Below the pieces are notes generated by a model. It was not told where the DNA came from. It saw only the letters and a list, made by a program, of their open reading frames with translations, and searched no databases. The position numbers and the translations under genes are program-made. From assembly GCA_036785375.1 (NCBI GenBank), contig JAWMAR010000064.1, positions 3,286,001-3,350,000 on the forward strand: a DNA stretch of 64,000 bases. The letters are read 5' to 3'. This document shows, piece by piece, positions 1,140-64,000 of the stretch (the first letter of the stretch is position 1; each line of letters begins with the position of its first letter). The stretch is from Leucoraja ocellata (lineage: Eukaryota).

Positions 1140-1557
1140 TTTTGATTGACCTTTCTTCCATTGTCAGAGTGAGGCTCAGCGCAAATTGGATGAACAGCAC
1201 CTCATATTTGGCTTGGGCAGCTTACACCCCAGCGGCATGAATATTTACTTCTCTAACCAAGTAATACTTGGTTTCCTTCTCTCCCCATCCTTCCCCCTTC
1301 CTAATTCTCTGAACAGTCTGACTGTCGATTAAATTTTACCTCTATTTGCTTCGTTGTCACCTTTTCCCAGCTAACAATTTTCTGCATTTTCCTTGAACCT
1401 CATCTCCTTTGATGTCTCATTTTGCCCTTCCTTACCTCTGTGTCTCCCTCTCCCCTGATTCTCACTGAAGAAGGGTCTCGACTCGATATATCGCCCTTTT
1501 CTTCTAACCAGAGATGCTGCCTGTCCCGCTGAGTTACTCCAGCAATTTGTGTCTATT
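1140..1557 (+). mobile_element. Penelope-like element 3' fragment (GIY-YIG C-terminus plus pLTR, degenerate hammerhead)
   Basis: 1183-1258 translates KLDEQHLIFGLGSLHPSGMNIYFSN, followed by ctgaagaagggtctcgactcgata at 1465 and the shared pLTR tail. Confidence 0.8.
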
Positions 1558-2454
1558 CCACCTATCACTTGCCAGGCAGAATCTCTGGTGAAAAAGGGTC
1601 CCCATTCGAAACGTCACCCATCCTTTTTCTCCAGAAACGCTGCCTAATCTGTTGAGTTACTCAAGCACTTTGTATTTACCTTCAGTATATACCAGCATCT
1701 GCTGTTCTTTTCTACACAAGTTTACAAAAAAAGACACAAAGTGCTGGGGTAACTCAGTGGGTCAGGCAGCATCTCTGGAAGACATTGATAGGAACATGGA
1801 AGGGTCCCGACCGGAAACATCACCTATCCATGTTCTTCAGAGATGCTGTGTGACCCGCTTTTTGTCTATTTTTACTTATGCTGGTTACTTATTATGCATT
1901 TTACTTATTGCAACAACTAACTGCTTTTATAATTTCCTTTAAATATTTTGCTAGTTTTATTTTAGCACTTTATGATTTTAATAGATCCCTGCATTATTTC
2001 TATCTCCTCGTTACCAATTCACAGCCCATGGAGATTCTTCCACAAGCTCTCCCAACATTTAAGATTTGAAAGGAATCTTTCTCTCATAAAGGGTGCATGG
2101 AACAAGCTGCCAAAGGAGGAGGTTGAGGCAGGGACTATCCCAACGTTTAAGAAACAGTTAGACAGGCAAATGGATAGGACAGATGTTTCAAAGGAACTGC
2201 AGATGCTGGAAAATCGAAGGTACACAAAAATGCTGGAGAAACTCAGCTGGTGCACCCGCTGAGTTTCTCCAGCATGTTTGTGCACTTTGGACAGGACAGG
2301 TGTGCAGTGATATGGACCAAACGCGGGCAGGTGGGACCAAAGATATTATAGCTCTGCTCTAAGATCTTTGGGTGGGACTGGTGTAGCTGGGACATGTTGG
2401 CCGGTGTGGGCAAGTTTCCATGATGTATCTATCACACTACGACTATGACTCTGA

Positions 2455-2691
2455 GCTCGCCCAACGGGAATGAAGGCTGCGAGCCGGGAACGCTCCTCCC
2501 CACATAGACGACGAGGTTGGCTGTCAGCAAAGATACTAGAGGAGTGGTCTATCTTGCTCCTCTAGTGTCTTTGGTTGTCAGGCAGTCAGAGGCGGAGTCG
2601 CGGCAATGGCTGGCGGCGCCTGAGCTGACTGACTGGTTGTCCACTCCGGTACCGGTACAGTCACCCAGACAGGCGGCCGCCGAGCATCGGT
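2455..2691 (+). promoter_or_regulatory. CpG-rich promoter / 5' UTR region of gucy1b1
   Basis: Local GC and CpG enrichment just upstream of the ATG exon; GC-box-like GAGGCGGAGT at 2589-2598; no clear TATA. Confidence 0.5.
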
Positions 2692-2694
2692 ATG
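2692..2694 (+). CDS. gucy1b1: gucy1b1 coding exon 1 (ATG only)
   Basis: cggtATG|gtgagt strong donor in a CpG-rich patch. Exon 2 begins at Tyr2 in phase 0 and so needs an upstream ATG. Confidence 0.88.
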
Positions 2695-5600: not shown

Positions 5601-8600
5601 AAGTAAGCTATTTAACCTCTGTATCATGAGATCTATAGTTCAATTATTGAATTAGTTACCAAATGCTTTCAGCTACATTCACATAGTTGTGATTCATAAA
5701 TATTAATTTCTTCGTTTATGGTTAAGGCTCGTGGGATCAGACTTAATTGAATTTACTCCTAAGAAGACAACTTGCAATTATCCACATTGCTTTCGATGTA
5801 AAAAAAAAAGAACGTGGCGGTAACATTTTGTATATTTGCCTACATTTATACATTCACCTGTATAGCCCGTAAGGATAGATGCAATAACAGAGAGGGGAAG
5901 AGGAGTAAACATTTCTGGTTCATTTTCTTCCCCAGAGTACAATTCGACCTCAGCGAAAAGCACAAGTGCAAAATAATATGTTTGCCATTACGAAGGGTTG
6001 GAGAAATGAGGGCAAAAGGGGTTTCCACCAGTACTGGACCCATCCAATAAATGCAATTTATTTGATACATTCAATTCAAGGAGAAGGATAGTTATCGTGG
6101 TGTTGGAGGCAACCTTGAGCAGCAAGGCGTTCAGTGTGGATACGCAGAACAGTAATGCAATAGTCATCGAATGTTGAATAATTACATAGTATGAACTTTA
6201 GCAACGTTGATCTGTCCCAAAGGCTGCATTATGTTTTGGGGGCCAGAAAAATAAGGATATGTCAATGCATTGGAATTTGACAAGATTGAGAAGAATTAGT
6301 TTGCTGGATGTAGCATGGCTCACGATACACAAGAAGGGAATGGAAGGAGGTCACAATCATTAACATTGTTATTTCAGGTGAAAGTATTAATAAAATGACT
6401 GAAATTACCATAGTAGTAGTACTGCAAACCCTTATTTTAACGGACCTCTCTATAACAGATGTTGGTTTATAGTGGATGGAGCACGCCACCCCCTGCTCCC
6501 CGTCACCTGCAGCCCCGGCTGCCCACACCACCCCATGCTCCCCGTCACCTGCAGCCCCGGCTGCCCACACCACCACCGACTTGCGCCGCTTGCAGGCTGG
6601 ACCTTCTGCCGCCACTCTTGTTCCACAAAGCTTCCTCGACTGCATCCAGGCCGTGCCTGCCACCATCACCGCTGACCCTTACCTGTACTCCGGCTGCCCT
6701 GACCATTGCCTCTGCTGATCCTCACTCTCGCCCAGCCACCAGCAGGTCATGGCCATCAACTCACCTGGATTGTAGGCTTGCTACCGGACTGAGAGTCTGA
6801 AGAAGGCTCTTGATCCGAAACATAAGGTCATAAGTGATAGGAGTGGAATGAGGCCATTCGGCCCCTCATCTACTCCACCATTCAATCATGGCTGATCTAT
6901 CTCTCCCTCCAAACCCCATTCTCCTGCTTCTCCCCATAACCTCAGACACCTGTACTAATCAACCCCTCCGCCTATGGCCCATTATAAGGAGGGTTTACTA
7001 TACTTTAATTTAAAGGGCCCAAGGAAAGCAGGTTAGGATATTTTGTCCAACTAAGAATTTTAACACATACATTTGAATGAGGTCAAATTTGAGGGGCAAA
7101 TGGGCTTAGAATGTATGACATGGTGCACTTTTATTGTAGGGAGATAAATATTCTAAGTTGTAAGACCTTTTGAAAAGGATAGGGAAAAAAACAAGCAAGG
7201 TTGGCCTGTGATGAAAATGATTATCACAATATTGTAATGTATTGGACAAAACTGTAATGGATATAATTTGTGGGTTTAACAGCTTTGTGGCAGGACATTT
7301 TCATTCATAGATGAGTCTTGTAGGATAAAGTAAGGTTGTTTAGCCACCAAGAGCTGAGAAGTACCAAAATTAAAAGGCTATTAAAAGAATTTCAATGGAT
7401 ATTTTAAAAACAGAGACAGATAGATTCTTGTGTAGGAAGGAACTGCAGAAGCTGGTTTAAACCGAAGATAGACACAAAAAGCTGGAGCAGCTCAACGGGA
7501 CAGGCAGCATCTCTGGAGAGAAGGAATGAGGGACGTTTATGGTCATGACCTTTCTTCAGGTGATAGGTTCTTGATTAGTACGGGTGTCAGGGGTTATTGG
7601 GAGAAGGCAGGAGAATGGGGTTGGGAGGGAGAGATAGATCAGCCATGATTGACTGGTGGAGGAGACTTGATGGGCCAAATGGCCCAATTCTGCTCCTATC
7701 ATTTAAGACCTTATGACTATACAATAGTGTGACGGTTGTGGAAGCAAAATAATTGAGGGAATTGAAAAGTGATGTACTAGAACATATCAATATTGCAAGA
7801 GAGAGTGTACTGGCAATTTTATGGCAGATTAAGGTGGATAAATTCTTGTGGCCTGACCAAATTTATCCAAGGACGTTGTGAGAAGCTTGGGACAAAATTG
7901 CAGTGGGCTGGCCAGGTCAAATATAATGTGAGCCTTTCAACATCAGATGTAAGAAGTGTTATAAATGAAAGTAAGGAAGTGACAAATTTATAAAATTAAT
8001 ACATTGTGGCAAAGTAACACCCTTGAAGGCTGAATTGGTGCTTTCTAGGGTTTTAAAGTAAACGGGTAAAGAAATTTCAGGCACCTTTGCTACAGTATAT
8101 ACTTTCAAAGCTATACATGACTGCATTGTGTCGGTCAGGTTAGAGTCTCAGAGCCATAAAAAACTGTTTGAGGCAACTATAGGCAATGGTGGAGGGACTG
8201 AACACAGACAAAACTGAAATTTAAAATCAACATGGGTTTGTAAAGATTTGCATAGGCTTAATTAATGTAACAGAATAGCACTGTTAATTCATTTGAACTT
8301 CAATTAAGCATTTGAGATAGCTGCTACACATGAATCTAAGAAATAAATTAGGAGTAAGCCATTTGGTCCCATGTGTTTGCTCCACCATTCAGTAAGGTTA
8401 CGACTGACCCTTTACCTCTGCACCATTTTCCTGCACCTAAACCATGTCCCTTGATTCCCTTCACAACCAAAAATCTATCAGCCTGCGTGATCTCTTGGCA
8501 GATGGGCCACAGCAACGCTCCACAGTCATACCACATCTAATCATGAATGGTAATTAACAATTCATTGTTCAGATTGTCGAAGGCGGTAGTTGAGGCAGGT

Positions 8601-11600
8601 TCTATTGCAAAGTCTAAGACACATTTAGACAGGTACATGGATAGGATGGGTGTGGAGGGATTGGGCTAAATGCAAGCAGGTAGGACTAGTGTAGATCGGA
8701 CATGTTGGTCGGTGTGAGCAGGTTGGGCTCTAGGCTCTGTTTCCATACTGTGCGACTATGACTACTCTGGGTGTGCTCTGTTTATTAAAATCTATTTTAT
8801 TTTTATTCGTATTTTATTATCAATTTTTCTCTTTTTTTTTCTTTCTTTAGTTTAGTTTAGTTTTGTTTTTTTTCCTTTTTTCCTTTTTTCTTTTTCTTTT
8901 TGTCTTTTTATCTTTGCGTTTTTTTTTACATTTATAAGTTTCCTTTTAAAGATGTAACTACATAGAGACCGGGAGGTCTATATTCATTGTGTATTTTGAC
9001 ACGGGTCTCATATTAGGTTTTACCTGTTATTAATGTAATCCTGATCCTTATGTATCAATACCATTGTTATGTTTGTCATTATTCTTTTTGCTCTGTTTTT
9101 TATGTTTTATTTTTGCTTTTTTTGGGTGTGCTCTTACAAGGTCTTTTATAGGTGCAGTTCATACCGAACCCATTGAAATAGACACCAACATTTTAGCTGG
9201 CATGCTAGCTCTTGGTCTTTCATGCACAAGGACTACCACGCCCTTTGTGCTCCAGCATTCTGTGTTTTTCCTTCATATTCCACTGATTTATTCATTTTTC
9301 ATATTTTCCCATTTTATACCATCTTTGCTAACTTTTTATCCACTTAACTAATTCAATGATCTAGGAATATTTCTATAAACTGTTTGTTGCCTTTGCCTTT
9401 CTATGGTCTTCTTCCTATCGAGTCCACACACGAGATTAGAAGTTGTTCAGCCAGTGTTGAACACACTTCTCGGCATCTGCATACAATGGTGTCTGTCTTG
9501 TTGCTTCTTGTGCGTGGTGGTGGAAAGATTGGTGAAAACAGGGCTGCGACGTGAATGCTCTTTCCCTGACACTACTTTTCTACAGTAAAAATTCACCCTG
9601 GCACAAAATGTGCATTATTGGATGTTTCTTTGTTCCGTGTAGCATCTGATATTTAAGTCATTCCCATTATATCATCAGTCATGAATTAATTTGTGTGACA
9701 AGTTACTCAGCTTCCACAGACACAACTAGGTCATAAACAATCTTGTTTGAGATATTTGGAATGAGACCCAACAGCATGTTCTGTGATCATTTCTTTCCAG
9801 AAATAAATGCTGGTGAAATACTACAGATGTTTGGGAAGATGTTTTTTGAATTCTGCCAAGAATCTGGCTATGATACAATCCTTCGTGTTCTAGGCTCCAA
9901 TGTTCGTGAGTTTTTGCAGGTAAATACATCATATTTCTGTTTTGAACAGCTAAACATCGATTATGTTTAAGTACTGGTCCACAGAAAGCTAGTTCAATAA
10001 CCTGAATTAAAGTATTAAAATTTATTACCCAACATTACGCCTTTTCTTGAGCTGAATGCCACTCTTTTGCTCTTCGTGGAATTGCATATTTCATGAAAGC
10101 ATCGTATTAATTAAACATTTCAGAATCTGTCAATGGTAACTTTATTTTTCAACACCTGTTTATGAAGCTTATTTTAAATGTTAAGTATTTTGTGGAATAA
10201 AAAGTAACAGCTGGCTATGATTGTTTTTTTGATAATTAAAATTCTTTATTTCCTGCAGCAATATTATGCTACTAATATAATCAAGTTGGTCATTATGAAT
10301 GAATGAATAAGTTTATTGGCCAGGTAGACAAAAATGTTGGAGAAACTCAGCGGGTGAGGCAGCACCTATGGAGCGAAGGAAATAGGCAACGTTTATTGGC
10401 CAAGTATTCACATACAAGCAATTTGCCTTGGTGCTCTGCCCGCAAGTGACCACATGACATACAGTGACAGTTAAGAATGATACATAAAACATTAAACATT
10501 AATAATAAAACATTATTGATTAAACGTGTGAATTAAATAAAATACCTGAGCAAAAGGAGGCTACAGATTTTTGGTTATTGAGTGGTGCTACTACTCATGG
10601 GGAAAAAAAGCTGTTTTTATGCCTGGCTGTGGCAGCTTTGACAGTCTAGAGTTGCCTTCCAGAGGGAAGTGATTCAAAGAGTTTGTGGCCAGGGTGAGAG
10701 GGGTCAGAGATAATCTTACCCGCTCGCTTCCTGGTCCTTGCAGTGTACAGTTCGTCAATGGAGGGAAGGTTGCAACCTTTTCAGCTGATCGGACAATTTG
10801 CTGCAGCCTCTGGATGTCGTGCTTGGTGGCTGAGCCAAACCAGACCATGATGGAGAAGGTGAGGACAGACTCTACGATGGCCGTATAGAATTGGACCATC
10901 ATTGCCTGTGGCAGATTGTGTTTCCTCAACTATATTGTGGAATGGAACATATAATAGTGTTTAGTTTAGAGATACAGTGCAAAAACAGGCCCTTCAGCCC
11001 ACCGAGTCCACACCGCCCAATGATCCCTGCACATTAACACTATCCTACACACACTGGGGACAATTTACATTTATACCAAGCCAATTAACCGACAAACCTG
11101 TATTTCTTTGGAATGTGGGAGGAAACCGAAGATCATGGAGAAAACGCACGTGGTCACATGGAGAATGTTCAAACTCTATACAGACAGCACCCGTAGTCAG
11201 GATCAAACCCAATTTTATTGGTACTGTAAGGCATGCTGTGTCACCGTGTCATGCTTTGGACATATTTCTGTCTCAGATTCAGATATTAATGCAGAGTACT
11301 GGCAAGCACAAAGTTTAATTCATCTAAAACAGAGGAAACTAATCTGGAAAATAATAGATACAGGGGTAAAATACCATAATATTTTCTAAAAGATCAGATT
11401 TTAAAACATTCAGTGCAGAGATAGATTGAAAAAAGTGAGCCACGATTTCTTAAAAGTTGACTAAACTGCCAGAGCGAAATCTTGGAAAAAGTAATTATTA
11501 ATATAGCATGGACTTTTTGCTTGTTTTTGATAAGTGCTACTAAAAGTTCTCGTTTTGAGTATATATTTAGTTTAGTTTAATTTAGAGATAATTGTAATTG

Positions 11601-14600: not shown

Positions 14601-17600
14601 TGCGCCATCTGTCGTCCCACATCTGTTGTCGTTGTATCATCTGCATACATGATGATGGTGTTAGTACCATGTACAGGTGTGCAGTCATAGGTGAAGAGGG
14701 AGTAGAGGAGGGGGCTCAGCACACAGCCCTGTGGAACGCCGGTGTTCAGGGTGAGGGTTGAAGAGGTGTGCTTGTCTAACCTAACAGACTGTGGTCTGTT
14801 GGTTAGAAAGTCCAGTATCCAGTTGCAGAGGGAGGGATCGATGCCCAGGTTACCGAGTTTGGTGATCAGTTTAGATGGTATAATGGTGTTGAATGCTGAG
14901 CTGTAATTGATGAACAGCATTCTTACGTAAGTGTCTCTGTTGTCGAGGTGGGAGAGGGCGGAGTGAAGTGCCGTTCAGATGGCATCCTCCGTAATCTGTT
15001 CGTAATTTCTAAGCTTTAATATTTCTGTGCATTTGACAGCTCGGTTGGTTTAAAACACTTCAAATTTAGACTTAAAGAGCACATTTTATTTATGAAAAGC
15101 TCCTCATAATCTATCATTGCTGTCAAGTATGTTCTGGGAATGTTGCATAGATGTGCATTTCTCTCCTTAGATGGCATGCATGTTGAGAATCCTTGTCATA
15201 TCGTACTAATCACAGAAAGTTTACCATTATGAAGCCATGTGGCCTTTTAAGTCCATACCAACTCTTGAAATGAACAAGATAGACACAAAATGCTGGAGTA
15301 ACTCAGCAGGACAGGCAGCATCCATGGAGAGAAGGAATGGGTGACATTTCAGGTTGAGACCATCTTCAGACGACTATGTCGCCTTTAAATTGAACAACCC
15401 AGTTCATTCCTCTCCCTTGTGCTCTACTCATAAATGATTTCCTTTCAGTTCCCGCTGAATCTGTGCCCTACGTGGCTGATGGACTTTTAGAGTCGTAAAA
15501 CTCACAATTTATGTTATATTCAAACGCTGCTGCCCTGCGATAGTGTTTGGCTGTGGTGCAACAGTAAATTGCCACTTATTATTCAAAGGCTAGATGGTGG
15601 TAAGATCTCGCTGCAACTGGAACCATTATTATAAATCTCTTAAGATCCATGACATCCTAAAATATGGTGACTGGAATTGAATGGAATACTCTAGGTGAGG
15701 TATCATTAGAGCTTTATGAAACCTCCGCAAAATTTCTCGGCTTTCATTTTATAAAGTCCGAACCCAGCTGCTCTTATAACTATTCTTGGAGTTTGTCATG
15801 CCCCAATCTGCTGTTCCTGCACACTCCTCAGAACAGTGCTTTTAAATCTGTGTGTTGGCCCTTTCAATTCCTTTTGCCAAAATCCCCCCAGCATTAATTT
15901 CCAAAGTGTAATTTGCCTGTTCATTCTGCCACCCTATCTCTGTCCTTTTGTAATGTTATAATGTTCTCCTCGATATTTCTGAATGAACTAGATTGCAAGT
16001 TTTCCCATTGTCGCCCGTTTCTGCCGACAGTGGAGGAAATATACCATGTGTGAACTGCGATATTATTAGAAGCACTGCAGATACTGGGAAGCATCAACGC
16101 ACCATGGGGAATCACACATGGAATTCCCCAGAGTAGTTTCCCAATGGGCGCCACTTGACCTGAAGATGGTTGATAGCATCATATACCGAGGGAAAAAACA
16201 TCTATAAAATATGCACAGATGTTTCCAGTTTTGTGGAAACTTAATTTATAAAATATTTCAGAGTTCAGTCTGTTAATCTATTATTGTGACTCTTATATTT
16301 CTTCTAAACTAAAAACTTTTTTTCATATGTACTTTCTATAATCTTATGAGCATTAACTTATTTTTGACCTTGATATTTGACATGAGTATGGTTTGCTTTG
16401 TTTCAACTTTTATTTACTTCCAACAGCATCCAAGGTGGGTGTGCAAAGACATCTCCCTGGTTTCTACATTGAGTGAATGCTGCATTGTCAGATGGGGCAA
16501 TAAACTGAAGGCCTGATCTACATGAAGCAGAAATCAAAAATTCCACAACACTATTTGGCATTCTCACTATTAAATGGAAGTTGTACTAAATTAATAATTT
16601 AGCATTGGTGACCAATCATAAAGTAAAATCATAAAATTAAATGATTACTCATTAACGCACCACTCATTGGCACCAACCTGAAACAAAACCGTTTGGCCTT
16701 TCGATCATACATCCCACTACGGTAAGTTAGTCCCTGAGGCAAAACTAATTGTTAAAGCGGTGAGATAGCTTGAATGTATCTGGCATTCACAAACATTCAA
16801 ACGTTAACAAATTAAACTGCGTTAAACAAAACAAAATGTTGCAAATAAGAACACAAACAAAAGCCAATACTTAAAAATAATTTCATACATTTACATTAGT
16901 TAACAATAAAAATGTTCTGGACGTTTTCCTAATTAGCCCTCTACTTGCAGATGTGAAACTGAAGGAGCCACAGAATCTGCATCAGATCTAACCTAAAGCA
17001 TGATTATCTGCAGATTTCCGAGAAAGTACCACTCGCTTCTTGGTGGGAGTGGCGGCGCCTAACGGCAGCGGCTCGACTACAGTCGTCTGTCTTTTTTTAT
17101 TTTTTGTATTGTTAAATGTATGTCTTTGAGTCAGTTTTCATTATTTTTTTTAGCTGTGTATATGTGGGGGTGGTGGGGGGGGGCTGTGGGGGAAACCGTT
17201 AATCTCTTCCCTGTGCGGGGACCCGACTATTCCCTGTCGGGTCTCGTATGTCGTTGGGCCTAACATCGTGGAGCCGGCGGCGACCTCCGACCGGGACTAA
17301 CCTGGGGGTTCCAGTTGCAGAGCCTGCGGAACTGACATCGCGGAGCTGGCAAAATTCGGAGCGGGAAGAGCTGTGGTGGCGTGCGGCTGCGACCCGACTT
17401 GTGGAGTTCGGAGGCACCGGCCGCAGACCTGGTGGACGGGAACATCGGGAGCTCCAAGTCCCTGGTGGGAGACCGCTTTTCCGAGCTCCGCAACAGCGAC
17501 TTCTCCCGCTGGAATCGCGGGTTTAAGGACATGGAGCCGGGGCCTAACATCACCCGGCGTGGCTTAAACGGCCTCAGGACTTACCATCGCCCGCCGGGGG

Positions 17601-44600: not shown

Positions 44601-47236
44601 ATTAGCATCTTCCAATGAATGGAACGGAATACTTTATTGTCACATGTGACAAGTCACAGTGAAATTCACTGCTTGCATAACGAAGGTATACAAATAGTTA
44701 CCACATAAGGGCGCTTGCAAAGTTACAAAGTATCCTGTGCCAGATCTTCCATTATTCTACCCCCTCCCTCCCCTTGCACCCTGTCTCGGCACCCCACTCC
44801 TCACTCCTCCCCCACTCCCACGCCAACATAAATGTTGCCCTTCTTTTTGCAGGTGGAGACAGTTGGCGATAAGTACATGACTGTGAGCGGCCTGCCAGAG
44901 CCATGTGTCCATCATGCTCGTTCCATATGTCACCTGGCATTAGACATGATGGAAATCGCAGGTCAGGTGCAGATAGATGGAGAACCTGTGCAGGTTAGCC
45001 AATAGACTCTGAAATGGTAGCCATTGTGCATGTTCACCTTCTTTGCGATGCATCTAATAAAAATCCTTGTAAATGCTGATGAACAATTCTTCATCAACAA
45101 ATATTCCATTGCTAAAAAAAAGATTCCATGAAAAACTAACATTTAAGATGGTAGTAAATTGAAAGCATAAATGTGTGAAGAAATAAACTGTGTAGTTGTG
45201 GCACAGGGAAGAACAATTGTCCACAGAGTACATGCCGTCTCTCTGCATAGCGTCCTGATGGTCCTAGTTCCCTGCTCCACACTGCAAGACCTGCTTGTGT
45301 ACTTTGAAGAGCCTCTCGTATTTTGAAATCATTGTCACTGCTTCTAGCACTCTTGTAGCCAGTGAATTTCAGTTAATTCATTTTTATTAGGTAGAAAAAT
45401 ATCTTCCACATAGCACTTCTGTATTTCTTCTTGTATCTTTAAATATGTGTCCCTACATCCTTGTACAAACAGCTAATGGGAACACCTTTTTCCTTTGTTT
45501 AATCTTATCTAAACCAATTGCAATCTTGTTCAGCCATGATCACAATGAATGGCGGTGTTGGCTTGAATGGCCTCCTTCTGCACCTATTTTCTATGTTTCT
45601 ATCTTTTTCAAATCAGCACCTCCTATTCCAGGGAATAAATTAAAGGCATCTTCAACCTAACCATGCAGCTAAATCCCCTTATTCCTTGAACTATTCTGAC
45701 AACCCTCCTCAAAATCCTTCAACTCCTCACCTACATTTCCTGTGTAGAATGTGGTGACTAACATTGGATACAGATCTTTCACATGTTATGGCAAGGTTCT
45801 GTAGAAGAGAACTGTTTGTAACCCTTAACAGTTCACCAATTAGATGGGTGGGTGCAGTTCGCCCCGGCAGAAGATGTTTGCAGAGGTGGGTTGCCCTATA
45901 GGACCTAACCATAACCCTAATCCTAACAAATTTAACCTAAGCCTATCTCGGGCTAATAATATTCCTTTAAAATTTGTTACTGCAGACAAGGTTTTAAATG
46001 CTATTGACGGTTTTATGAAAGATCCTGCTTGGATATAGAAACATAAAAAATAGGTGCAGGAGTAGGCCATTCGGCCCTTCAAGCCAGCACCGCCATTCAA
46101 TATGACCATGGCTGATCATACAAATTCAGTACAGCGTCCTGCTTTTCCCCCATATCCTTTGATTCCGTTAGCACTAAGAGCTAAATCTAACTCTCTTGAA
46201 AACATCCAGTGAATTGGCCTCACTGCCTTTGTAGCAGAGTATTCCACAGATTCACAACTCTTAGGGTGAATTTTTTTTCCCTGTGTGAAAATGTGTTTCC
46301 TCGTCTCCGTTCTAAATGGGCTACCCCTTATTCTTAAACTGTGACCCCTGGTTCTGATATGGCCTGGATGGCATGTTTGTAGATAAGATTTGTAAAGTAA
46401 ACATCATTGTGTTAACTGGAATATATTCTTCTTGGGTTCAACGTGGCATTATAACAGCCCTGTAATAGCTGGCAAATCCATCCTGCTTGTCTCCTAAAGC
46501 ACAAAGTGCTGGAGGAATTGAGCAGGTCAGGCAGTATCGGTGGAGGAAAATGGACAGACAACGTTTTTGGGTTGGGACCATTCTTGGGACCATTATCTGA
46601 GGATTATTATCTAGCAGCTCAGATGCTGCTAGCATTGGATTCACTAAAATTATATCGATAAACTATATAAGAACATGGACACAAAAATCTGGAGTAACTC
46701 TGTGGGTCAGATAAGAAAAGGAATAGGTGACGTTTCGGATTGACACCCTTCTTCGGACTATATCTTCTTTCACTTCAGATCACTATTGGCATTCACACTG
46801 GAGAAGTTGTCACTGGTGTAATAGGCCAGAGGATGCCTCGCTATTGTTTGTTTGGAAATACTGTTAACCTAACAAGCAGGACAGAAACCACTGGAGAAAA
46901 AGGGAGGATCAATGTCTCTGATGCCACATGCAGGTGAGTATCAGTTTAATTCATGGTGAATGGTGTTGTTACAATCATGTGATGGGGGAGGGGAGCACAT
47001 CACGTTTATATCTTGCACATTTACCATTTCTGAATTAATATTGTTTCAACCTGCACTTAAAATGAGAAAAATTGTCCTAATTAGCATCATCTTTTATAAT
47101 TAGATGCCTTATGAATGCTGAGAACTCGGACGAACAGTTTCAACTGGAGTACAGAGATCTGGTTAGCATGAAGGGCAAGAAAGATCCGATGAAAGTTTGG
47201 TTCCTCTCCAGAAAAAGCAAGGAGACCGAAATATGA
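2692..47236 (+). CDS. gucy1b1: Soluble guanylate cyclase subunit beta-1 (NO receptor), spliced CDS of 13 exons, 613 aa
   Basis: Joined exons translate [12 protein letters not shown]...[23 protein letters not shown]...HYYSEREGL...VETVGDKYM...[18 protein letters not shown]...[12 protein letters not shown], collinear with vertebrate sGC beta1 (H-NOX, PAS, coiled coil, cyclase). Exon lengths 3+74+101+119+198+231+117+134+198+238+141+155+133=1842 nt; all introns GT-AG with matching phases. Confidence 0.98.
3181..3254 (+). CDS. gucy1b1: gucy1b1 exon 2 ([25 protein letters not shown])
   Basis: tttgcag| acceptor, |gtaagt donor; H-NOX N-terminus. Confidence 0.97.
3955..5375 (-). mobile_element. CR1 LINE, degenerate RT fragments
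   Basis: [22 protein letters not shown] and [13 protein letters not shown] motifs in minus-strand ORFs; a separate CR1 tail with (CATAGAAA)n is inserted near 4811-4945. Confidence 0.9.
5432..5532 (+). CDS. gucy1b1: gucy1b1 exon 3 ([33 protein letters not shown])
   Basis: ttgcag| acceptor, |gtaagt donor, 101 nt. Confidence 0.97.
6487..6575. repeat. 42-bp tandem duplication in a GC-rich patch
   Basis: cacccc(c/a)tgctccccgtcacctgcagccccggctgcccacac repeated twice. Confidence 0.85.
9801..9919 (+). CDS. gucy1b1: gucy1b1 exon 4 ([39 protein letters not shown])
   Basis: ttccag| acceptor, |gtaaat donor; contains Cys78. Confidence 0.97.
10298..10930 (-). mobile_element. Rex1/Babar-type LINE 3' fragment
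   Basis: [19 protein letters not shown]; (TTCA)n tail. Confidence 0.8.
11591..12050 (-). mobile_element. Rex1-type LINE 3' fragment inserted in a V-SINE tail
   Basis: [10 protein letters not shown]...LPSGKRYRS...[11 protein letters not shown]; TSD AGATA at 11586-11590 and 12051-12055. Confidence 0.85.
12776..13420 (-). mobile_element. L2-group (Crack-like) LINE 3' end
   Basis: Minus strand [20 protein letters not shown]...IQFKKMYK; AT-rich UTR and (TAAA)n tail; clade is inferred. Confidence 0.6.
13527..15000 (-). mobile_element. Rex1/Babar LINE RT fragment
   Basis: [48 protein letters not shown] across frameshifted ORFs. Confidence 0.92.
14397..14629 (-). mobile_element. tRNA-derived SINE with L2-type (TAT)n tail
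   Basis: A box TGGCGCAATGG and B box GGTTCGAATCC on minus; 8-bp TSD CGTTGTAT at 14389-14396 and 14630-14637. Confidence 0.88.
17043..17858 (+). mobile_element. GC-rich ~800-bp non-coding retroposon, copy A
   Basis: Closely similar to 24381-25190; ends in hairpin-TGACAATAAA-(ATTCT)n. Confidence 0.85.
18203..18400 (+). CDS. gucy1b1: gucy1b1 exon 5 (heme-binding His105, YxSxR)
   Basis: ttctcag| NLDALHDHL...EIDMK |gtaaga; His105 codon CAT at 18218-18220. Confidence 0.98.
19181..19540. mobile_element. PIF/Harbinger-type MITE
   Basis: Long TIR AGCCCCTGTCCCACGATGC...GCATCGTGGGACAGAGACT; TTA on both sides. Confidence 0.85.
19755..20547 (+). mobile_element. GC-rich non-coding retroposon, copy B
   Basis: Same architecture with an (ATTGT) tail. 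Confidence 0.8.
20807..20991. mobile_element. Palindromic pLTR-derived short element
   Basis: Near-perfect inverted arms of about 60 bp; flanked by the direct repeat cacaaata(c/t)tactg at 20793-20806 and 20992-21005. Confidence 0.8.
21100..21990 (+). mobile_element. CR1 LINE 3' fragments
   Basis: [29 protein letters not shown] remnants. Confidence 0.75.
22180..24330 (+). mobile_element. Rex1/Babar LINE, 5'-truncated, RT split into two ORFs
   Basis: [45 protein letters not shown]; tail TGACAATAAA-(TTGAA)n. Confidence 0.94.
24381..25190 (+). mobile_element. GC-rich non-coding retroposon, copy C
   Basis: Close match to copy A; (ATTCT)7 tail. Confidence 0.85.
25421..25550 (+). mobile_element. 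pLTR-derived short element beginning at the hammerhead
   Basis: 11-bp TSD TAAACAAGTCT at 25410-25420 and 25551-25561. Confidence 0.8.
29586..29903 (-). mobile_element. V-SINE (HE1-like), full length
   Basis: Same family; further copies near 10960-11230(-), 12051-12275(-), 30305-30600(-), 50037-50086(+) and 62395-62920(-). Confidence 0.88.
30778..31008 (+). CDS. gucy1b1: gucy1b1 exon 6 ([11 protein letters not shown]...IYRVLPQ)
   Basis: ttttag| acceptor, |gtacga donor, 231 nt. Confidence 0.97.
31575..31766. mobile_element. Palindromic pLTR-derived element with the hammerhead in its loop
   Basis: Arms 31613-31670 and 31704-31762 are reverse complements. Confidence 0.8.
31668..31708 (+). ncRNA. 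Minimal type I hammerhead ribozyme motif (Penelope-type) in intron 6, sense strand
   Basis: AATAGT-CTGAAGA-A-GGGTC tc GACCC-GAAA-CGTC-GCCTATT: intact core, 5-bp stem II, loopless palindromic stem III (ACGT), predicted cleavage after C31701. Activity untested. Confidence 0.7.
32035..32365 (+). mobile_element. CR1 LINE 3' end
   Basis: [34 protein letters not shown]. Confidence 0.85.
32411..32445 (-). ncRNA. Minimal hammerhead motif, antisense copy
   Basis: Reverse complement agt-CTGAAGA-A-GGGT ctca ATCC-GAAA-CGTC-acct; core intact. Confidence 0.6.
32906..33445 (-). mobile_element. CR1 LINE 3' end with (AGACAAT)n tail
   Basis: ORF 33002..33478 [11 protein letters not shown]...[14 protein letters not shown]; related tails near 34380-34590 and 46036-46355. 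Confidence 0.9.
33644..33760 (+). CDS. gucy1b1: gucy1b1 exon 7 ([39 protein letters not shown])
   Basis: ctgtag| acceptor, |gtaact donor; PAS domain; not in the ORF track, translated by eye. Confidence 0.96.
33889..34022 (+). CDS. gucy1b1: gucy1b1 exon 8 (EDLLNVEK...[21 protein letters not shown])
   Basis: ctttag| acceptor, |gtatat donor; LKGQM motif; follows a 128-bp intron. Confidence 0.96.
34912..35109 (+). CDS. gucy1b1: gucy1b1 exon 9 ([26 protein letters not shown]...EKKKTD)
   Basis: atccag| acceptor, |gtaagc donor; coiled-coil region. Confidence 0.97.
35160..36013 (+). mobile_element. GC-rich non-coding retroposon, copy D
   Basis: Similar to copy B; (ATTGT)n tail; starts about 50 bp after the exon 9 donor. 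Confidence 0.8.
36150..37300 (+). mobile_element. Old CR1 LINE fragments
   Basis: Degenerate VDVVYMD, LEYCV and [11 protein letters not shown] motifs. Confidence 0.7.
36572..36727. mobile_element. Palindromic pLTR-derived element inserted in a CR1
   Basis: 16-bp TSD TACAAGAACTGGAATG at 36556-36571 and 36728-36743. Confidence 0.8.
37957..38258. mobile_element. Harbinger-type MITE, internally deleted
   Basis: Right end matches the 62647-62882 element (GGTTTCCGTTCAGGTTTCCTAAGT...ACAGGGGCA-TTA). Confidence 0.7.
39022..39119 (+). mobile_element. pLTR-derived short element
   Basis: 11-bp TSD TCACTGATAAA at 39011-39021 and 39120-39130; degenerate hammerhead at its 5' end. Confidence 0.75.
39614..39851 (+). 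CDS. gucy1b1: gucy1b1 exon 10 ([16 protein letters not shown]...NPYVFK)
   Basis: tttcag| acceptor, |gtgagt donor; [11 protein letters not shown] motif typical of beta1. Confidence 0.97.
39895..41310. mobile_element. Non-autonomous Tc1/mariner (Tigger/pogo-like) composite element
   Basis: 24-bp perfect TIR CAGGTGCACAACCTTTTATCCGAA; TA TSD at 39893-39894 and 41311-41312; no transposase ORF. Confidence 0.9.
42369..43231 (+). mobile_element. GC-rich non-coding retroposon, divergent copy E
   Basis: Same 5' head, T-tract, G-tract, internal hairpin and (ATTCT)n tail, with a different middle. Confidence 0.75.
43757..44297. mobile_element. Harbinger-type MITE
   Basis: TIR AGGGGCTGTCCCACTGCGGTGACCTAAT / ATTAGGTCACCGCAGTGGGACAGCCCCT; TAA and TTA flanks; internal CTTCGAC repeats. 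Confidence 0.88.
44853..44993 (+). CDS. gucy1b1: gucy1b1 exon 11 ([18 protein letters not shown]...GEPVQ)
   Basis: ttgcag| acceptor, |gttagc donor; cyclase VETVGDKYM motif. Confidence 0.97.
46779..46933 (+). CDS. gucy1b1: gucy1b1 exon 12 ([36 protein letters not shown]...)
   Basis: cttcag| acceptor, |gtgagt donor; guanylate cyclase signature with Cys541, Asn548, Arg552. Confidence 0.98.
47104..47236 (+). CDS. gucy1b1: gucy1b1 exon 13, terminal coding part ([43 protein letters not shown])
   Basis: aattag| acceptor; MKGK motif; TGA at 47234-47236. Confidence 0.93.
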
Positions 47237-48074: not shown

Positions 48075-48109
<35 letters not shown>

Positions 48110-48437: not shown

Positions 48438-48869
48438 ATCTACCTGGTTGTAGATTTGCTAATAATTGACAATAAGATCTTTTTACTGACATATATCAAG
48501 CACAACCAACAATATTGGGCTGGAACAGCTTCCAGCAGGAGACGTGGCCAGTTCTGAAAGTTTTAATATTTCAAGAAGCCTTCAGAGTGGCCTGTGTTGG
48601 AATAGAATCGGTTAACGGGATAATTAATTAATCTTCTAATGTTTTGCTACTCATATTCTCTGCTTGAATTGTATGTATGGGATACTTACATGAACTTACA
48701 AGGCCTTAATATCTTTGTTCAATAGCCCTGAGATAGAATGATTAAATTACTCAACGTGAGGAATGGCATATTATATGGTGCTCGTTTGCATCAACGTCAC
48801 CGATTCCTTCTCTCCAGAGATGCTGCCTGTCCCGCTGAGTTACTCCAGCATTTTGTGTCAATATTTAAT

Positions 48870-49430
48870 CAGGAGGACAGTGGAGCTAGTCAGAGAACTA
48901 ATATGGGGCGGGACGGAGAGAGAGGGAAAACAAGGTTACTTGAAGGTAGAGAAATCAATATTCATTCCACTGGGTAGTAAGCTGCCCAAGTGGAATATGA
49001 GGTGCTGTTCCTCCAATTTGTGTTGGGCCTCACTCTTACAGTGGAGCAGGCCCAGGACAGAAAGTTCAGTGTGAGAATGGGAGGGGGAGTTAAAGCGTTT
49101 AGCAACCGGCAGATCAGGTAGGTTTCGGCAAACTGAGCAGAGGTGTTGAGCCTGTGCTTGGTCTCGCTGATATATAGGAGTCCACACCTGGAACAGCAGA
49201 TACAGTTGATGAGGTTGGAGGAGGTGCAAGTGAACCTGCCTCATCTGAAAAGACTGTTGGGGTCCTTGGGTAGAGTCGAGGGAGGAGGTTCAGAGACAGG
49301 TGTTGCATCTCCTGCAGGGGAAAGTACCTGGGGAGGGGGTGGTTTGGGTGGGAAGGGATGAGTTAACCAGGGAGTTGTGGAGGGAATGGTTTGCAGAAAG
49401 CAAAAAGGGGTGAAGATGGGAAGATGTGGT
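48870..49430 (-). mobile_element. Penelope-like retroelement fragment, degenerate GIY-YIG endonuclease
   Basis: Minus strand FTCTSSNLINCICCSRCGLLYISETKHR (GIY...YIG-like), then frameshifted LPVAKRFNSPSHS...KLEEQHLIFHLGSLLPSGMNIDFS. Confidence 0.85.
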
Positions 49431-53039: not shown

Positions 53040-53399
53040 GACAGTTTCTTCCCAGCTGTTATCAGACAACTGAATCAACGTACCACCACCAGACAACAGT
53101 GCTGAATTACTATGTACCACTTTGATGTTCCTCAGACTATCCTTGATCAGATTTTGCTGGTTTTACCTTGCACAAACGTTATTCCCTTATCATGTATCTA
53201 TACACGGAATGGATCGATTGTAATCATGTATTGTCTTTCTGCTGACTGGTTAGCACGCAACAAAAGCTTTTCACCGTACACGTGACATTAAACTAAACTA
53301 AACTAAACTCATCTCCAAATACCTTGACTCATCCTATCCCCTTGTCCAGTCCCTTCCAACCTACATCCAAGACATTTCCTTGCCTTTGACATGCCTGTC

Positions 53400-53720
53400 A
53401 AATCTTCAAACTGGAGGAACAGGACCTCATATTCTGCTTGAGTCTACAAACCAACAATATGATTATTGAAATTCTCCACTTTTATGTAGCTAATCTACTA
53501 ACACCCCCACCTTTTCCCTTTCCCTCCCTCTTTTATTTTGCTCCTCTCTTCCCTCGAAGCACTTCCTTTTTCTCCATTTTCCCTTCCCTATATAGCTTCC
53601 TCAGGCTTCACATTTTGTGCATCTTCTGTCCGTATCTCCTTATTTCACACTTTTTGTACTTCCATCTCTGGCCTTAGCCCAACCATCTGCCAATTAACTC
53701 TCACCCCCTCACCTGTATCA
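53400..53720 (+). mobile_element. Old Penelope-like 3' fragment
   Basis: KLEEQDLIFCL remnant followed by a pyrimidine-rich pLTR-like tract. Confidence 0.55.
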
Positions 53721-54879
53721 CCAGTATGGTTGCCAAGTTTACTGATGATTCAGAGTTGGGAAGGAAAGAAAGTTGTGATGAAGACACTAAAGAGATATGG
53801 ATAGGTTAAGTGATGGGCTAAGATGCAACAAATGGAGTAACATGCGGTAAAATGTGACATTGTTTACTTTGGACAGAAAAATAATAATGCAGTGTATCAT
53901 CTAAAATGGTAAGAAATCACAAACTGTATTATTGGACACTTAGAAGTCTGCAAATGTAAGATTTGCCTCATCAAAACATCCAAGAAAATTGGATACAATT
54001 CATCTTTAACAAACCCATGTTGGCTTTCTCTAATCAATCCTTACTTTATCATTCAACTGATAAATTTGTCCCTGATTATTGTTTATGTACTTTCTTTGCC
54101 ATCAAGATTAAATTCAGTGCTCAGTATCAACTTGGGTTCATACAAGTGTTTAACGTTTGCTGTTTATCAGTCCTCAAGAACCAATCCTAATCTGTATATG
54201 TTTTTTATTTTGCTCCCTTCATATCTTCCTAATTTGATTTAATATCCTCATTTTGATTGAATTGCATCAGTTTCAACCCAATGTATAATTCTAACATATC
54301 ATGGTCATTCTTCCTATATGCACCATTACAATAAGATTTTCAATTAACCCTCTCTCATTGCACAAAAACAAGACCTAAGATATGCGTTTCCTGAGTTGGT
54401 TTCTCAACACATTATTCACCTTCACCATAGGAGCAGCTAGGCTCACATGTATGGCTCACTGATAAAAGACAGAGGGTTGTGGTAGTAGGGGGTTATTCTG
54501 GCAGGAGCACAGTGACCAGTGGAGTTTGCAGTGTTCTGGGCCAGGATCTCTGTTGTTTGTGATATATGTAAAGGAATTGAATGTAAATGTAGATGGGTTA
54601 GACTGTTAAATAATGACACCAAGGCTTTTTGATAGACCATGGATTGAATACATTTTGCAGGGAATATGCAGTGTGGACAGTTGAGGTTAGTTTATTTTGA
54701 CATTATCTTCAGCGCAGACATTGTGGAAAAAAGGGCCTGTTCCTATGCTGTACTTTTCTTTGTTTTTTCTATATATTCTATGTGTGATTGGGCATCTGCC
54801 AACTGAATGTCTCACACAACTCACTCAATTTTGAGAACTTGAGCTTGTGTCTGTGCCTGCTATACCACCTGGCCCAATA

Positions 54880-55815
54880 TTAAAAATAAATTGGATAGGC
54901 ATATGGATGAGAAGGGAATGGAGGGTTATGGTATTAGTGCAGGCAGGTGGGACTAAGGGAAAAAACGTTGTTCGGCACAGACTCGTAGGGCCGAGATGGC
55001 CTGTTTCCGTGCTGTGATTGTTATATGGTTATATGGTTAAGACTCTTTAGCCCATCATCTATTCCGCCATTCAATCAAGGCTGATTTCTCTCTCCCTCCT
55101 AACCCCATTCTCCTACCTTCTCACCATAACCCCCATAATTTTAATGTACAAATCTATCTCTGCATTAAAGATATCCACTGACTGGCCTCTATAGCCTTCT
55201 GTGGCAAATAATTCCACAGATTCACCAACTTCTGACTAAATATTTGTTTCCTCAATTTCTTCCTAAAATATAGGTCCTTTAATTCTGATGCTATGTCCTC
55301 TAGTCCTAGACTCTCCCACTAGTGGAAACATCCTTTCCACCTCCACTCTACATAAGCATTTCACTATTCTGTATGTTTCAATGAGGTCCCCCTCATTCTT
55401 CTAAACTCCAGTAAGTGCAGGCCCAGTGCCGACATAGGCTCATCATAGGTTAACCTACTCATTCCTGGAATCATTCTTGTAAACCTCCTCTGGACCCTGT
55501 CCAGAGCCAGCACATCCTTCCTCAGATACGGTGCCCAAAATTGCTCACAATATTCCAAATGCGGCCTGACCAGCGCCTTATAGAGCCTCAACATTACATC
55601 CCTGTTTTTGTATACAAGCCCTCTTGAAATAAATGCTAGCATTGAGTATGCTTTATTAACTACCAATTCGACTTGCAGATGAACTTTTTGGGAATAATGC
55701 ACCAGCACTCCCAAGTCCCTTTGCACCTCCGATGTCTGGATTCTCGCCCCATTCAGAAAATAGTTTACTCCTTTATTCCTACTGCCAAAATGCATGGCCA
55801 CACTTTGCCAAGGTA
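54880..55815 (-). mobile_element. CR1 LINE fragments (short + strand tail, then a - strand 3' end)
   Basis: ORF 55364..55819 [18 protein letters not shown]. Confidence 0.85.
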
Positions 55816-57026
55816 GCATTCCAAGAAATGCTGTAATTTAATTAAGGAAGATTTATTGTTTCCGAAAGAGGGCTGGTGGTGTGAAGTCCATCCTGAATTC
55901 TCAGGAATTCTTTGATGGCCATTAATCTGCAAGTCCCCTGGTAGTTCCGCTAAATAGGACCTTGGAAGAAAATCTGCCTCATTTTCATGAATGTGTTTTA
56001 AGTGCAGGCTGTTGCTCAAACCAGCAGGTGGTGTGCTTGGTCTGTATTGGTTTAACTTCTCCATATGACTGATCTGCAGATTGTTTCTTTCAAAAGCATA
56101 GCTGGGACCTGATGATACTTGTTTAGGGCCCAAAATGGTGGAATAACTCAATGGGTCAGGAAGCATCTCTGGAGAACGCGGATAGGTGACGCTTCGGGTC
56201 GGGCTTCATTTCATGTCTCAAGAAGCGTCTCAATCCAAAAGGTCACCTACCCATGTCCTCCAGAGATGTTGCCTGACCCATTGAATTACTCCAGCACTTT
56301 GTGTTCCTTGCAAGATTCCAGCATCTGTAGTTCCTTGTGTCATCTGATGACACTAGTTTGAATGGCATTTAAAGGTAGCATTCAGATATTTTTCTTTCAA
56401 CTCACCGATCTGTTCTCATCTCACTACCCATGGAAACTGGGTTGAAATTAAAATATTAATTTTATTGTGTACTGTGGCATTTCAAAAATCTTTAAATAAA
56501 CCAATTGAGGGCTTCAAATCAGGTTATTAGAAGTTTTCTTTACATGTATTTTAGTCCAATACATTTGATATGTTCGATATTTATTTACCTGGGGAGGAAC
56601 ACATTAGCAACATAAAAATAACTCACTGGGGGATTCTGAATTAATGAGATTAATCTGCAGCTAACGTAAATGAGCAGGCCACTGTTGTCACAGACTTCAT
56701 CAGCAAGTGGGGGAAAGCATACCAAAGAAGGCAATACATGTGTTCCTAACTGGAAACCATGGATGAACCATGAGGTCCACTCGCAGGTGACATCCAAGCC
56801 TGCAGCATACAAGTCCAACATTGCAAGCAGTACTACGACCTTCTGAGAACAATTAAGGATGCCAAGAGGGAATTCTGAGTGAAGCTGGAGTCCTGAGGAA
56901 ATGTCCCAGACACCCGGATTGTGGCAAAGCTTGAACACTATTATAGGCAGCAAAGCAATATTGTGTAGTACTGCTAGCAACAACAGGTCCCTCTCCCATG
57001 AGCTCAGTGCATTCTGTGCTTACTTT

Positions 57027-60037: not shown

Positions 60038-60238
60038 GTGTGGGAAGGAAGTGCAGATGCTGGTTTAAATCGAAGGTAGACGCAAAATGCTGGAGTAACT
60101 CAGCGGGACAGGCAGCGTCTTTGGAGAGAAGGAATGGGTGACGTTTCGAGTCGAGACTCTTCTCTCGACCCAAAATGTCACCCATTCCTTCTCTCCAGAG
60201 ATGCTGCCTGTCCCGCTGAGTTACTCCAGCATTTTGTG
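60038..60238. mobile_element. Palindromic pLTR-derived element
   Basis: Inverted arms of about 60 bp centred near 60160. Confidence 0.75.
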
Positions 60239-60489
60239 ACCTCCTTTTGTTAATCGTGTTGCCTACTGCTCTGACATTATTATATTCCTTTTTCTTTGAT
60301 CTAATACCACCTTTAACTACTTCTGTTAGACGCAACCTTTTAGGTTTTTGAACCTTAACAGGATGCCTATTTTTTGGTAAAATATATATTCTTTAAATAT
60401 TAGGCAATATTCCTTGTTTACAGTAATATTTTTTTACTGTAATATCTTCCATACCCTATATCATATGGTTTGTTTGCAATTAGGACAAC

Positions 60490-62646: not shown

Positions 62647-62882
62647 TGCCCCTGTCCCACTTAGGAAACCTGAACGGAAACCTCTGGAGACTTTGCGCCC
62701 CACCCAAGGTTTCCGTGCGGTTCCCGAAGGTTCCCGGAGGTTTTTGCCAGTCTCCCTACCTGCTTCTACTACCTGCAACCTCCGGCAACCACCTGCAACC
62801 TCCGGGAACCGCACGGAAACCTTGGGTGGGGCGCAAAGTCTCCGGAGGTTTCCGTTCAGGTTTCCTAAGTGGGACAGGGGCA
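62647..62882. mobile_element. Harbinger-type MITE inserted in a V-SINE
   Basis: Near-perfect TIRs of about 80 bp starting TGCCCCTGTCCCACTTAGG; TAA and TTA flanks. Confidence 0.9.
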
Positions 62883-63304
62883 TTAGGCAGCTACTCTACC
62901 GCAGCACCACCATGCCGCCCAGTTTGTTAAGCCCTTTAACAATTTCATAAGGTTTGATGAAATCTCCTTCCTTTCTTCTAAACTCTGGAAAATTCATTCT
63001 CAGTAATCCTAAAGTTTTGGATAACATAAAACTTGGAATGTATTGAACTGTGAACAGATTAGTAACAGGACAAGGAGATATAGTTGGCCAGATTGAATGA
63101 ATGGGCATGTTGCAGATGAAATTTGACATGGAGTTCATGCTGTATTTTGATAAGAAAAATGATCAATGTAATATACTGCAGAGGACATAATAATAATTAT
63201 AAGGGTACAAAAACTGACATAGATTACAGTATACATGCAGAGAAGGCATGTTCTTTATCTCGCTACATCATCATCTATATCTCTCGGTTCCCATATCCCT
63301 AACC

Positions 63305-63340
63305 AGTCTGAAGAAGGGTCTTGACCAGAAACGTCACCCA
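63305..63340 (+). ncRNA. Minimal hammerhead motif within a pLTR copy
   Basis: agt-CTGAAGA-AG-GGTC tt GACC-A-GAAA-CGTC-accc; core present, stem II closing pair mismatched. Confidence 0.45.
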
Positions 63341-64000
63341 CTCCTTCTCTCCAGTGATGCTGCCTGTCCTACTGAATTACTCCAGCTTTTTGTATCTTTC
63401 TGAGGCTTTACATATGTGGTGGATAGACCGGAGGAACTGGTGTTGTTTTCCTTGGAACAAGGGAGGTTGTGAAGAGATCTGTAATAGTTAATTAAAATTA
63501 GGAAGGTTAAAGATAGAGCTGAAAGAGAGAAACAGTCCCCATTTGGGGAACGGTAAAGAGACAGAAGAAGACTGAAAAAAATACAAAGTGCTGGAGTAAT
63601 TCAGTGGATCAGATAGCATCTGATAGGTGACATTTCGGGTCAGGACCCTTGGAAGAATTAAAGTGTTTGGCAAAATATTCAATGAGACATTCATGAGACA
63701 TGATTTTTGTGTGCATAGTGTTTTGGGTCTGGAATACAGTGCCAGGATTGCAGAGTAAATGGCTTCAATTATTGAACTTAACGGAATGAATTGACAGGGC
63801 TCTGGGGTGGCGAGGAGGAGTGGGATTAGTTGGATTGCTCTTGCATAGAGTCAGTAAGGAAGCAACAGCTAATGTCCACCTCTTCGTTTACTGTAACTAC
63901 CCTACATTTCTGTTGCTTAATGAAAACTCCTTGGTGATTTGTGCGTAAAAATGGAAAGTAACAAATTCTGGGCTTCATAAATGGAGGAGTTGAGTGCAAA

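Follow-up and report, generated by a model that had tools for sequence, protein, structure and literature searches.

Dispersed hammerhead-bearing repeats in a skate genome are probably pLTR ends copied directly by a Neptune-type Penelope-like element

Short repeats headed by a hammerhead ribozyme motif recur throughout a 64,000-nt stretch of contig JAWMAR010000064.1 of Leucoraja ocellata, the whole of which was analysed and is referred to here as the window. A sequence-only reading had derived these repeats from the pLTR of a Penelope-like element (PLE) and had proposed that they form a separate, non-autonomous, retrozyme-like family. The question is by which route they were inserted. We consider it likely, with a probability of about 0.65, that they are pLTR ends of a Neptune-type PLE copied straight from the element's RNAs by its RT-endonuclease, and not via a separate circular retrozyme. 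Apart from one in vitro study, little is understood of how PLEs transpose. A dense family such as this one is a large natural record of RT start and stop sites, arm pairing and stagger length, in which a two-start, two-strand model can be tested in vivo by counting copies.

Anatomy and abundance of the repeat unit

With blastn and a profile search, 30 arms of the hammerhead unit were detected at 23 loci, covering 3,254 bp or 5.1% of the window. The unit was recovered at all 17 positions named in the sequence-only reading and at six further loci. The profile was built from 15 window arms, which match it by construction, and returned 34 rows at E ≤ 1. Four rows of 5.4-12.3 bits (1572-1618, 9248, 37852 and 41065) were left out of the unit count, while the piece at 6796-6823 was retained despite its 9.9 bits because of a blastn E value of 7e-5. 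On ten control sequences (one reversed, nine shuffled), the profile gave zero or one match of at most 7.7 bits. The 28-nt hammerhead motif, with at most three mismatches, occurs four times in the window; the largest count in 100 shuffles was 0. Outside the window, one unit copy was matched by 372,853 contigs of run X1, possibly the window's own sample, and by 299,087 contigs of run X7, which, like RNA run X22, comes from a related species. Summed contig depth was rejected as a measure of copy number. Unit pattern scans of metagenome and viral contigs gave 0 loci.

Positions within the unit are numbered from 25418 (+1). The hammerhead spans +1 to +31, with predicted cleavage after +29, and is followed by approximately 65 nt up to a ragged, tail-less end, optionally extended by a tail of approximately 35 nt. 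Reads and contigs contain the corresponding two classes of 3' end, with loose ends at 25545 and at 25506-25514. Subfamilies A, B and C were assigned by eye from the sequence past the cleavage site and the tail. Most insertions measure only 60-220 bp. The following features were located.

1153..1257, plus strand: C-terminal remnant of a PLE GIY-YIG endonuclease ORF, 5'-truncated near 1157 (tblastn to skate/shark PLE proteins, E 1e-6 to 1e-10; phmmer matches)
1258..1464, plus strand: pyrimidine-rich 3' UTR of the same PLE copy, between ORF end and unit
1465..1557, plus strand: tail-less, ORF-linked unit of subfamily A; 2 nt just upstream missing
1586..1717, plus strand: unit with tail, start at +3
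1725..1866, both strands: head-to-head pair of subfamily C, both arms tail-less, tail to tail against copy 1586..1717
2187..2290, both strands: head-to-head pair of subfamily B, hammerhead gone; 16-bp TSD 2171/2288
6794..6823, plus strand: hammerhead-only piece ending abruptly at about +28 (blastn)
7430..7560, minus strand: solo unit A with tail, start at +2; 12-bp TSD 7419/7562
10322..10395, minus strand: solo unit B, tail-less, start at +23; 16-bp TSD 10311/10391
15274..15371, minus strand: solo unit A, tail-less, start at the motif edge plus about 11 extra nt; decayed TSD of about 15 bp
20807..20992, both strands: head-to-head pair B; minus arm tailed, plus arm beginning at the predicted cleavage site; 14-bp TSD 20793/20992
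21259..21360, minus strand: unit A, tail-less, start at the motif edge; no clear TSD
25416..25549, plus strand: solo unit A with tail, the coordinate reference, predicted cleavage at 25446/25447; 11-bp TSD 25410/25551
31575..31771, both strands: head-to-head pair B; the plus arm (31673-31701) has the only fully intact hammerhead
32370..32660, minus strand: unit C, its own UTR present over about 220 bp; 3' end missing from about +74
36571..36730, both strands: head-to-head pair B; perfect 16-bp TSD 36556/36728
39022..39122, plus strand: solo unit A, tail-less, start at the motif edge; 11-bp TSD 39011/39120
42263..42353, plus strand: divergent relative with only the downstream part and tail in common, excluded from the start tally
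46498..46590, minus strand: decayed unit, start at the motif edge
46671..46760, minus strand: unit with internal deletion, start at the motif edge; 7-bp flank repeat
48793..48862, plus strand: unit A, tail-less, start at +24, adjoining the UTR of the next feature in opposite orientation
48863..49430, minus strand: second PLE remnant, comprising a Cys-motif linker (C-x-x-x-C-x-x-C), the first part of the UTR and, at 48939-49430, a GIY-YIG domain broken by a frameshift
53407..53725, plus strand: third, weak GIY-YIG end with UTR, the latter similar to that upstream of unit 32443
56125..56343, both strands: head-to-head pair C; tailed plus arm starting at the motif edge; 16-bp TSD 56109/56344
60038..60240, both strands: head-to-head pair A; uncertain TSD, the 8-bp repeat lying 16 nt away
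63275..63400, plus strand: unit A, tail-less, about 30 nt of UTR-like sequence upstream
63572..63650, minus strand: decayed unit C with internal deletion, start at +8

A guanylate cyclase domain exon lies near 39672-39854.

Head-to-head pairs, a feature absent from the sequence-only reading, make up seven of the 23 loci and include those near 1800, 31674, 56200 and 60150, which were among the copies listed there. Six of the seven combine one tailed and one tail-less arm, both arms belong to the same subfamily (as assigned by eye) in all seven, and the centre differs at every locus. A MITE reading of these inverted pairs was rejected, as their arms are unequal in length and end and their centres vary by locus. 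The four TSDs reported for solo copies all exist (25410/25551, 11 bp; 36556/36728, 16 bp; 39011/39120, 11 bp; 20793/20992, 14 bp with one mismatch), but 20793/20992 and 36556/36728 enclose head-to-head pairs and not solo units. TSDs in the window range from 11 to 16 bp, and several insertion junctions have, as judged by eye, a few bases in common with the TSD. Flank repeats scoring at least 9 were found at 8/20 loci tested against 7/380 mismatched flank pairs, which supports the proposed insertion by an RT/endonuclease; at a score of at least 7, the counts were 11/20 and 33/380.

Penelope origin and state of the hammerhead

The proposed origin from a Penelope pLTR is supported by one ORF-linked copy, by contigs and by a shark protein. 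The GIY-YIG remnant noted before the first unit was confirmed at 1153-1257 by tblastn and phmmer, and is followed by a UTR and then by unit 1465, so that the window itself contains a GIY-YIG domain at the ORF C-terminus, upstream of the terminal repeat. ORF, UTR and unit are tiled by X1 contigs, and the 2 nt missing ahead of unit 1465 are present in 97 reads and 64 contigs. The zebra-shark protein P0025 has RT motifs and GIY-YIG, and its C-terminal peptide matches the translated unit. The GIY-YIG domain of remnant 48939-49430 is 55% identical to a skate protein, and the top protein matches are from skates. Modest support comes from a similarity between UTRs: the one preceding unit 32443, of subfamily C, resembles the one behind remnant 53407 (E 3.6e-4 by blastn within a set of 11 sequences). 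Within the window, subfamilies A and C are tied to UTR- or ORF-bearing copies, whereas none of the nine subfamily B arms has a UTR.

Profile evidence for the domain comes from relatives, which match PF01541, below the Pfam cut-off except for P0027 and P0012. Pfam gave no match on the window's own PLE remnants, nor did a protein search with the 41-aa remnant alone; the ESM Atlas returned unnamed clusters, with 0.89 for GIY-YIG as a lead only. The RT is found in homologues P0025-P0027 and nowhere in the window, and no full-length element of the unit's family was recovered from the 64 kb or from the metagenome and viral contig scans. P0011, P0013 and P0021 were set aside as PLE relatives, being repetitive proteins without RT or GIY-YIG match. 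Assuming that the ORF starts at an ATG inside the unit, three of the four tailed subfamily A arms have an in-frame stop within the tail; an ORF start inside the unit found no match to the N-terminus of P0027. A Cys-motif linker between RT and endonuclease is described as a mark of the Neptune and Nematis clades, and the vertebrates sampled in bioRxiv 10.64898/2026.07.22.740005 are reported with Neptune and Poseidon only. On the basis of the ORF-linked copy, the zebra-shark read-through and the Cys-motif linker, the repeats are assigned from sequence to the pLTR ends of a Neptune-type PLE.

The hammerhead is of the minimal type I with a loopless palindromic helix III, as had been proposed: the core CUGANGA/GAAA/UH and helix II are present. 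Core positions are conserved across subfamily majorities (8/8 of those scored), as are 23/27 motif positions against 12/19 just downstream. This core agreement among majorities implies that the source elements kept the hammerhead. In the inserted copies, the motif has decayed after insertion. Twelve arms span the whole motif; four of them keep all core bases (one being cut off there), and in only one are the pairs of helices II and III all preserved as well. G12, which lies in a CpG, is changed in 6/20 arms and in 743/5,418 RNA reads. Selection on the core in inserted copies was not significant, with non-CpG changes at 10/168 compared to 147/1574 downstream (p=0.16).

Helix I consists of two contiguous pairs in the three copies examined and not of 4-5 bp, the length reached by helix II; a 2-bp variant is known in D. 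virilis (PMC4209133). The helix III palindrome has a computed self-duplex energy of -3.1 kcal/mol. Single-strand folds of seven slices had no special stability (z -1.45 to +1.22), and the minimum-energy folds of monomer and dimer were both different from the hammerhead fold. An Rfam search, proposed as a check on the motif, found no hammerhead: none in the window reached the gathering score, and none appeared within 31500-32600 even at E ≤ 10. The only matches were to hairpins of miRNA type, fell below threshold and lay over an inverted pair. No pile-up of RNA ends was seen at the predicted cleavage site, a weak test with a fragmented polyA library from a related species.

A fixed start and the routes that could produce it

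Starts were placed for 29 arms: 15 lie at +5 to +60, 11 at -5 to +3, and three arms extend upstream. Among the 14 arms long enough to reach +3, 11 end within the interval -5 to +3, a stopping rate of 14.5% per nt compared with 1.1% per nt further downstream (nominal P ~2e-9, with starts placed by eye and some blurred by microhomology, the 9-nt interval chosen post hoc, and short UTR pieces possibly unrecognised).

Direct copying by the PLE can be outlined from work on a purified anole PLE (PMC11167929). This protein is described to nick and extend both target strands and to start reverse transcription at two internal positions, in agreement with the genomic tail. It uses RNA spanning the pLTR-ORF junction, 5'-shortened templates yield shorter products, and hammerhead mutants still insert, so that cleavage is not needed there. 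By analogy, the skate PLE protein would nick both target strands 11-16 bp apart, and RT would begin at one of two internal RNA sites, giving a tail-less or a tailed end. Extension of one nick would leave a solo copy, and extension of both a head-to-head pair. Most cDNAs would be short, and an RT starting 95-135 nt downstream would run off at the motif edge to produce the fixed-start unit, longer copies arising from read-through or tandem RNAs. The front edge of the motif is taken as the transcript 5' end because the RT start sites of the tested PLE lie just inside the 5' pLTR-ORF junction. The edge resembles an initiator, and the helix III palindrome, 27-30 nt downstream of it, matches five of the eight letters of the downstream promoter element reported for Penelope. 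Whether the fixed start reflects such a run-off is close to an even call, leaning slightly against. RNA starts did not accumulate at the proposed transcript start, again a weak test in a fragmented polyA library from a related species. Ribozyme cleavage is probably unnecessary for insertion, and published PLE hammerheads are described as weak or protein-assisted. Against direct copying, the in vitro element belongs to the Poseidon and not the Neptune clade, and junction microhomology is seen here whereas PMC11167929 reports non-homologous priming. Self-priming on an antisense template is another model in print for head-to-head repeats.

A fixed start would also follow if tandem short units were transcribed, cut by dimeric hammerheads and circularised, one full turn of the circle being inserted; vertebrate retrozymes are described to derive from pLTRs, and three arms begin at +30 to +32, at or just past the predicted cleavage site. 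Retrozymes are defined, however, as tandem repeats in which every unit bears its own hammerhead, and no tandem array of the unit exists among the 23 loci. Head-to-tail joints back to the motif start occur in eight X1 contigs but in 0/14,988 mapped X22 RNA reads (a polyA library that disfavours circles and could miss them; 15 of 67 joints listed), and none of the 15 joints listed from a second comparison, which has 475 more, returns to the motif start. The 2-bp helix I and the intact motif in only 1/12 arms argue against this route as well, and it predicts neither inverted pairs nor a one-sided tail. We regard it as highly improbable. Without an array in the window or a head-to-tail joint in RNA, the term retrozyme is unsupported, as is the separate non-autonomous family of the sequence-only reading, given that subfamilies A and C include long copies as well. 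A self-propagating short subset may exist. In such a SINE-like subset, short copies beginning at the transcript start would retain the two RT start sites along with an internal promoter, and their linear RNAs would be re-copied in trans by the PLE protein. This would agree with the sharp common start (5/6 solo copies with a flank repeat begin at the edge), with the lack of an ORF link for subfamily B in the window, and with a depth over the unit approximately 12-14 times that over the ORF end, a ratio that is not a copy number. An internal Inr/DPE promoter is described for D. virilis Penelope, and pLTRs are reported to suffice for mobilisation in trans. On the other hand, A and C are found in short and UTR-bearing copies alike, and run-off on autonomous RNAs would yield identical ends. 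The unit was found in 18,707/7,335,232 RNA records; depth was the same on the two strands and ends did not pile up, a pattern in keeping with passive co-transcription. A SINE-like subset is thus considered unlikely.

With the same origin from truncated PLEs, the start could instead mark a block in a long template, either a 3' splice site (a pyrimidine tract and AG ahead of the motif) or a folded, protein-bound hammerhead. The two copies that have both a UTR and an undamaged edge (32443, 63307) end in a pyrimidine run and CAG, reads restore the same at 1464, and a D. virilis intron is described to end at helix I. Yet no GT..AG skip occurs among the 15 joints listed of 67, solo copies have no common upstream exon beyond 1-3 nt, helix II measures only 4-5 bp, and most stops lie beyond helix II, at the edge. 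A template block therefore appears very unlikely to us.

Direct copying from the element's RNAs, with run-off at the motif edge, can be taken one step further. In a distinctly unlikely extension, the unit would be a complete minimal Penelope: a run-off copy of the transcript 5' end, about 100 or 135 nt long, into which both RT start sites are packed together with an initiator at the edge and a downstream promoter element that the helix III palindrome would also provide. On this view, solo copies would transcribe themselves as SINE-like PLE parasites and would have been amplified in cartilaginous fishes to hundreds of thousands of copies, with neither tandem arrays nor circles. Should transcripts begin at the fixed start, this would explain genomes filled with uniform short PLE ends and would warn against labelling such ends as retrozymes.

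Comparison with known systems

Truncated PLEs that leave single minimal hammerheads dispersed in a genome have been published before, as have opposite-strand pairs, the tail and TSDs, and the inverted pairs, one-sided tail and dispersed minimal hammerheads found here are, by their sequence features, ordinary hallmarks of PLE insertion. For vertebrate retrozymes, among them one from a chondrichthyan, bioRxiv 10.64898/2026.07.22.740005 describes an origin from pLTRs. Our literature search found no account of the unit's family itself; Repbase or Dfam may well catalogue it, and the preprint tables or the PMC4209133 supplement may list shark motifs. Further background on PLEs and hammerheads is available in PMC6765202, PMC2377424 and PMC5499810.

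Metazoan non-LTR retrozymes (PMC7229834; bioRxiv 10.64898/2026.07.22.740005) resemble the unit in being non-coding, pLTR-related, dispersed as monomers and equipped with a type I hammerhead. They are described as tandem repeats, and in PMC7229834 with canonical hammerheads and circular RNA, whereas a minimal motif, no arrays and frequent inverted pairs are found here. The minimal type I hammerheads of metazoan PLEs (PMC4209133) agree in their conserved core, an extra base after position 9, the G10.1-C11.1 pair and the palindromic loopless helix III, and also occur mostly as single dispersed motifs with opposite-strand pairs. The skate motif differs from their norm by a helix I of 2 bp instead of 4-5 bp, and cartilaginous fishes are not named in the sections of that paper covered.

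The Poseidon element PAc of the green anole (PMC11167929) likewise has two 3' end classes that define a tail and a hammerhead near the RT start sites, and its both-strand extension would give head-to-head pairs as seen here. It belongs to another clade, junction microhomology is seen here, and the parts of that study considered make no mention of genomic copies that run off at a fixed 5' end. Neptune-type EN+ PLE insertions (PMC8557442, PMC3846280) are described with the same C-terminal GIY-YIG and Cys-motif linker, heavy 5' truncation, TSDs, adjacent inverted 5'-truncated copies and a one-sided tail of 30-40 bp. Compared to the rotifer PLEs in these reports, TSDs are longer in the skate window (11-16 bp versus 8-10 bp), and the copies, at 60-220 bp, are densely spaced (23 loci per 64 kb) and often have one and the same start.

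Joints between copies and arm starts

The tail-to-tail joints, in which the tail-less end of one arm (a single copy of the hammerhead-bearing unit) meets the tailed end of an arm on the opposite strand, account for 10 of the 15 joints listed (25502-25513 to 25542/25545). Among the joints listed, they are found in 239 contigs assembled from sequencing run X1 and 402 from run X7. Such a tail-to-tail arrangement also occurs in the window itself (1588-1792). These joints suggest that the ends of old copies serve as landing sites for new ones. Three arms (20921, 1792 and 31672), all belonging to inverted pairs, begin at +30 to +32, i.e. at or immediately past the predicted hammerhead cleavage site, a weak hint that the template is sometimes the cleaved RNA.

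Transcripts and predicted proteins

A partial head-to-tail repeat (joint 1551 to 1508), whose second unit starts from approximately +23, is covered by 152 polyA RNA reads of a related species (X22) and is likewise present in four X1 contigs; the RNA reads probably stem from one or a few expressed loci. Reads over the end of the Penelope-like element (PLE) ORF (1160-1250) are strand-biased at approximately 1.9:1 and those over the unit are even, in a library of unrecorded strandedness. The C-terminus of the PLE GIY-YIG domain also forms the end of two predicted proteins, P0003 and P0020, one of which carries the name neuromedin-U receptor 1. These ends represent either exonised fragments or gene-model errors.

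Surrounding sequence

The exon at 39672-39854 encodes the catalytic domain of a guanylate cyclase and resembles the soluble beta subunit, and many unit copies of the window are therefore probably intronic. Other repeats and a divergent relative of the unit are listed below.

Other repeats and unit relative in the window
22168-24095, 13721-14974, 51403-52356, 33002-33499, 55364-55837: LINE reverse transcriptase remnants (PF00078 together with PF09004 at 23001-24092; weak PF00078 match at 51403-52353)
17043-17858, 19757-20546, 24382-25191: GC-rich repeat of ~800 bp, several copies
41950-42353: divergent relative; pyrimidine-rich upstream region, then the downstream part of the unit and the tail; hammerhead not recognisable at the expected place

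Possible ORF start within the unit

An ATG within the unit is in frame with the tail in subfamilies A, B and C (25468-25549 and other tailed arms). The ATG-tail frame is 57 nt long in all four tailed A arms, 54 nt in one arm each of B and C, and 55 nt in a second B arm. Reading from this ATG, a stop is encountered in three of the four tailed A arms. The ATG may be an ORF start, as in other PLEs, in which case subfamily A would be non-coding.
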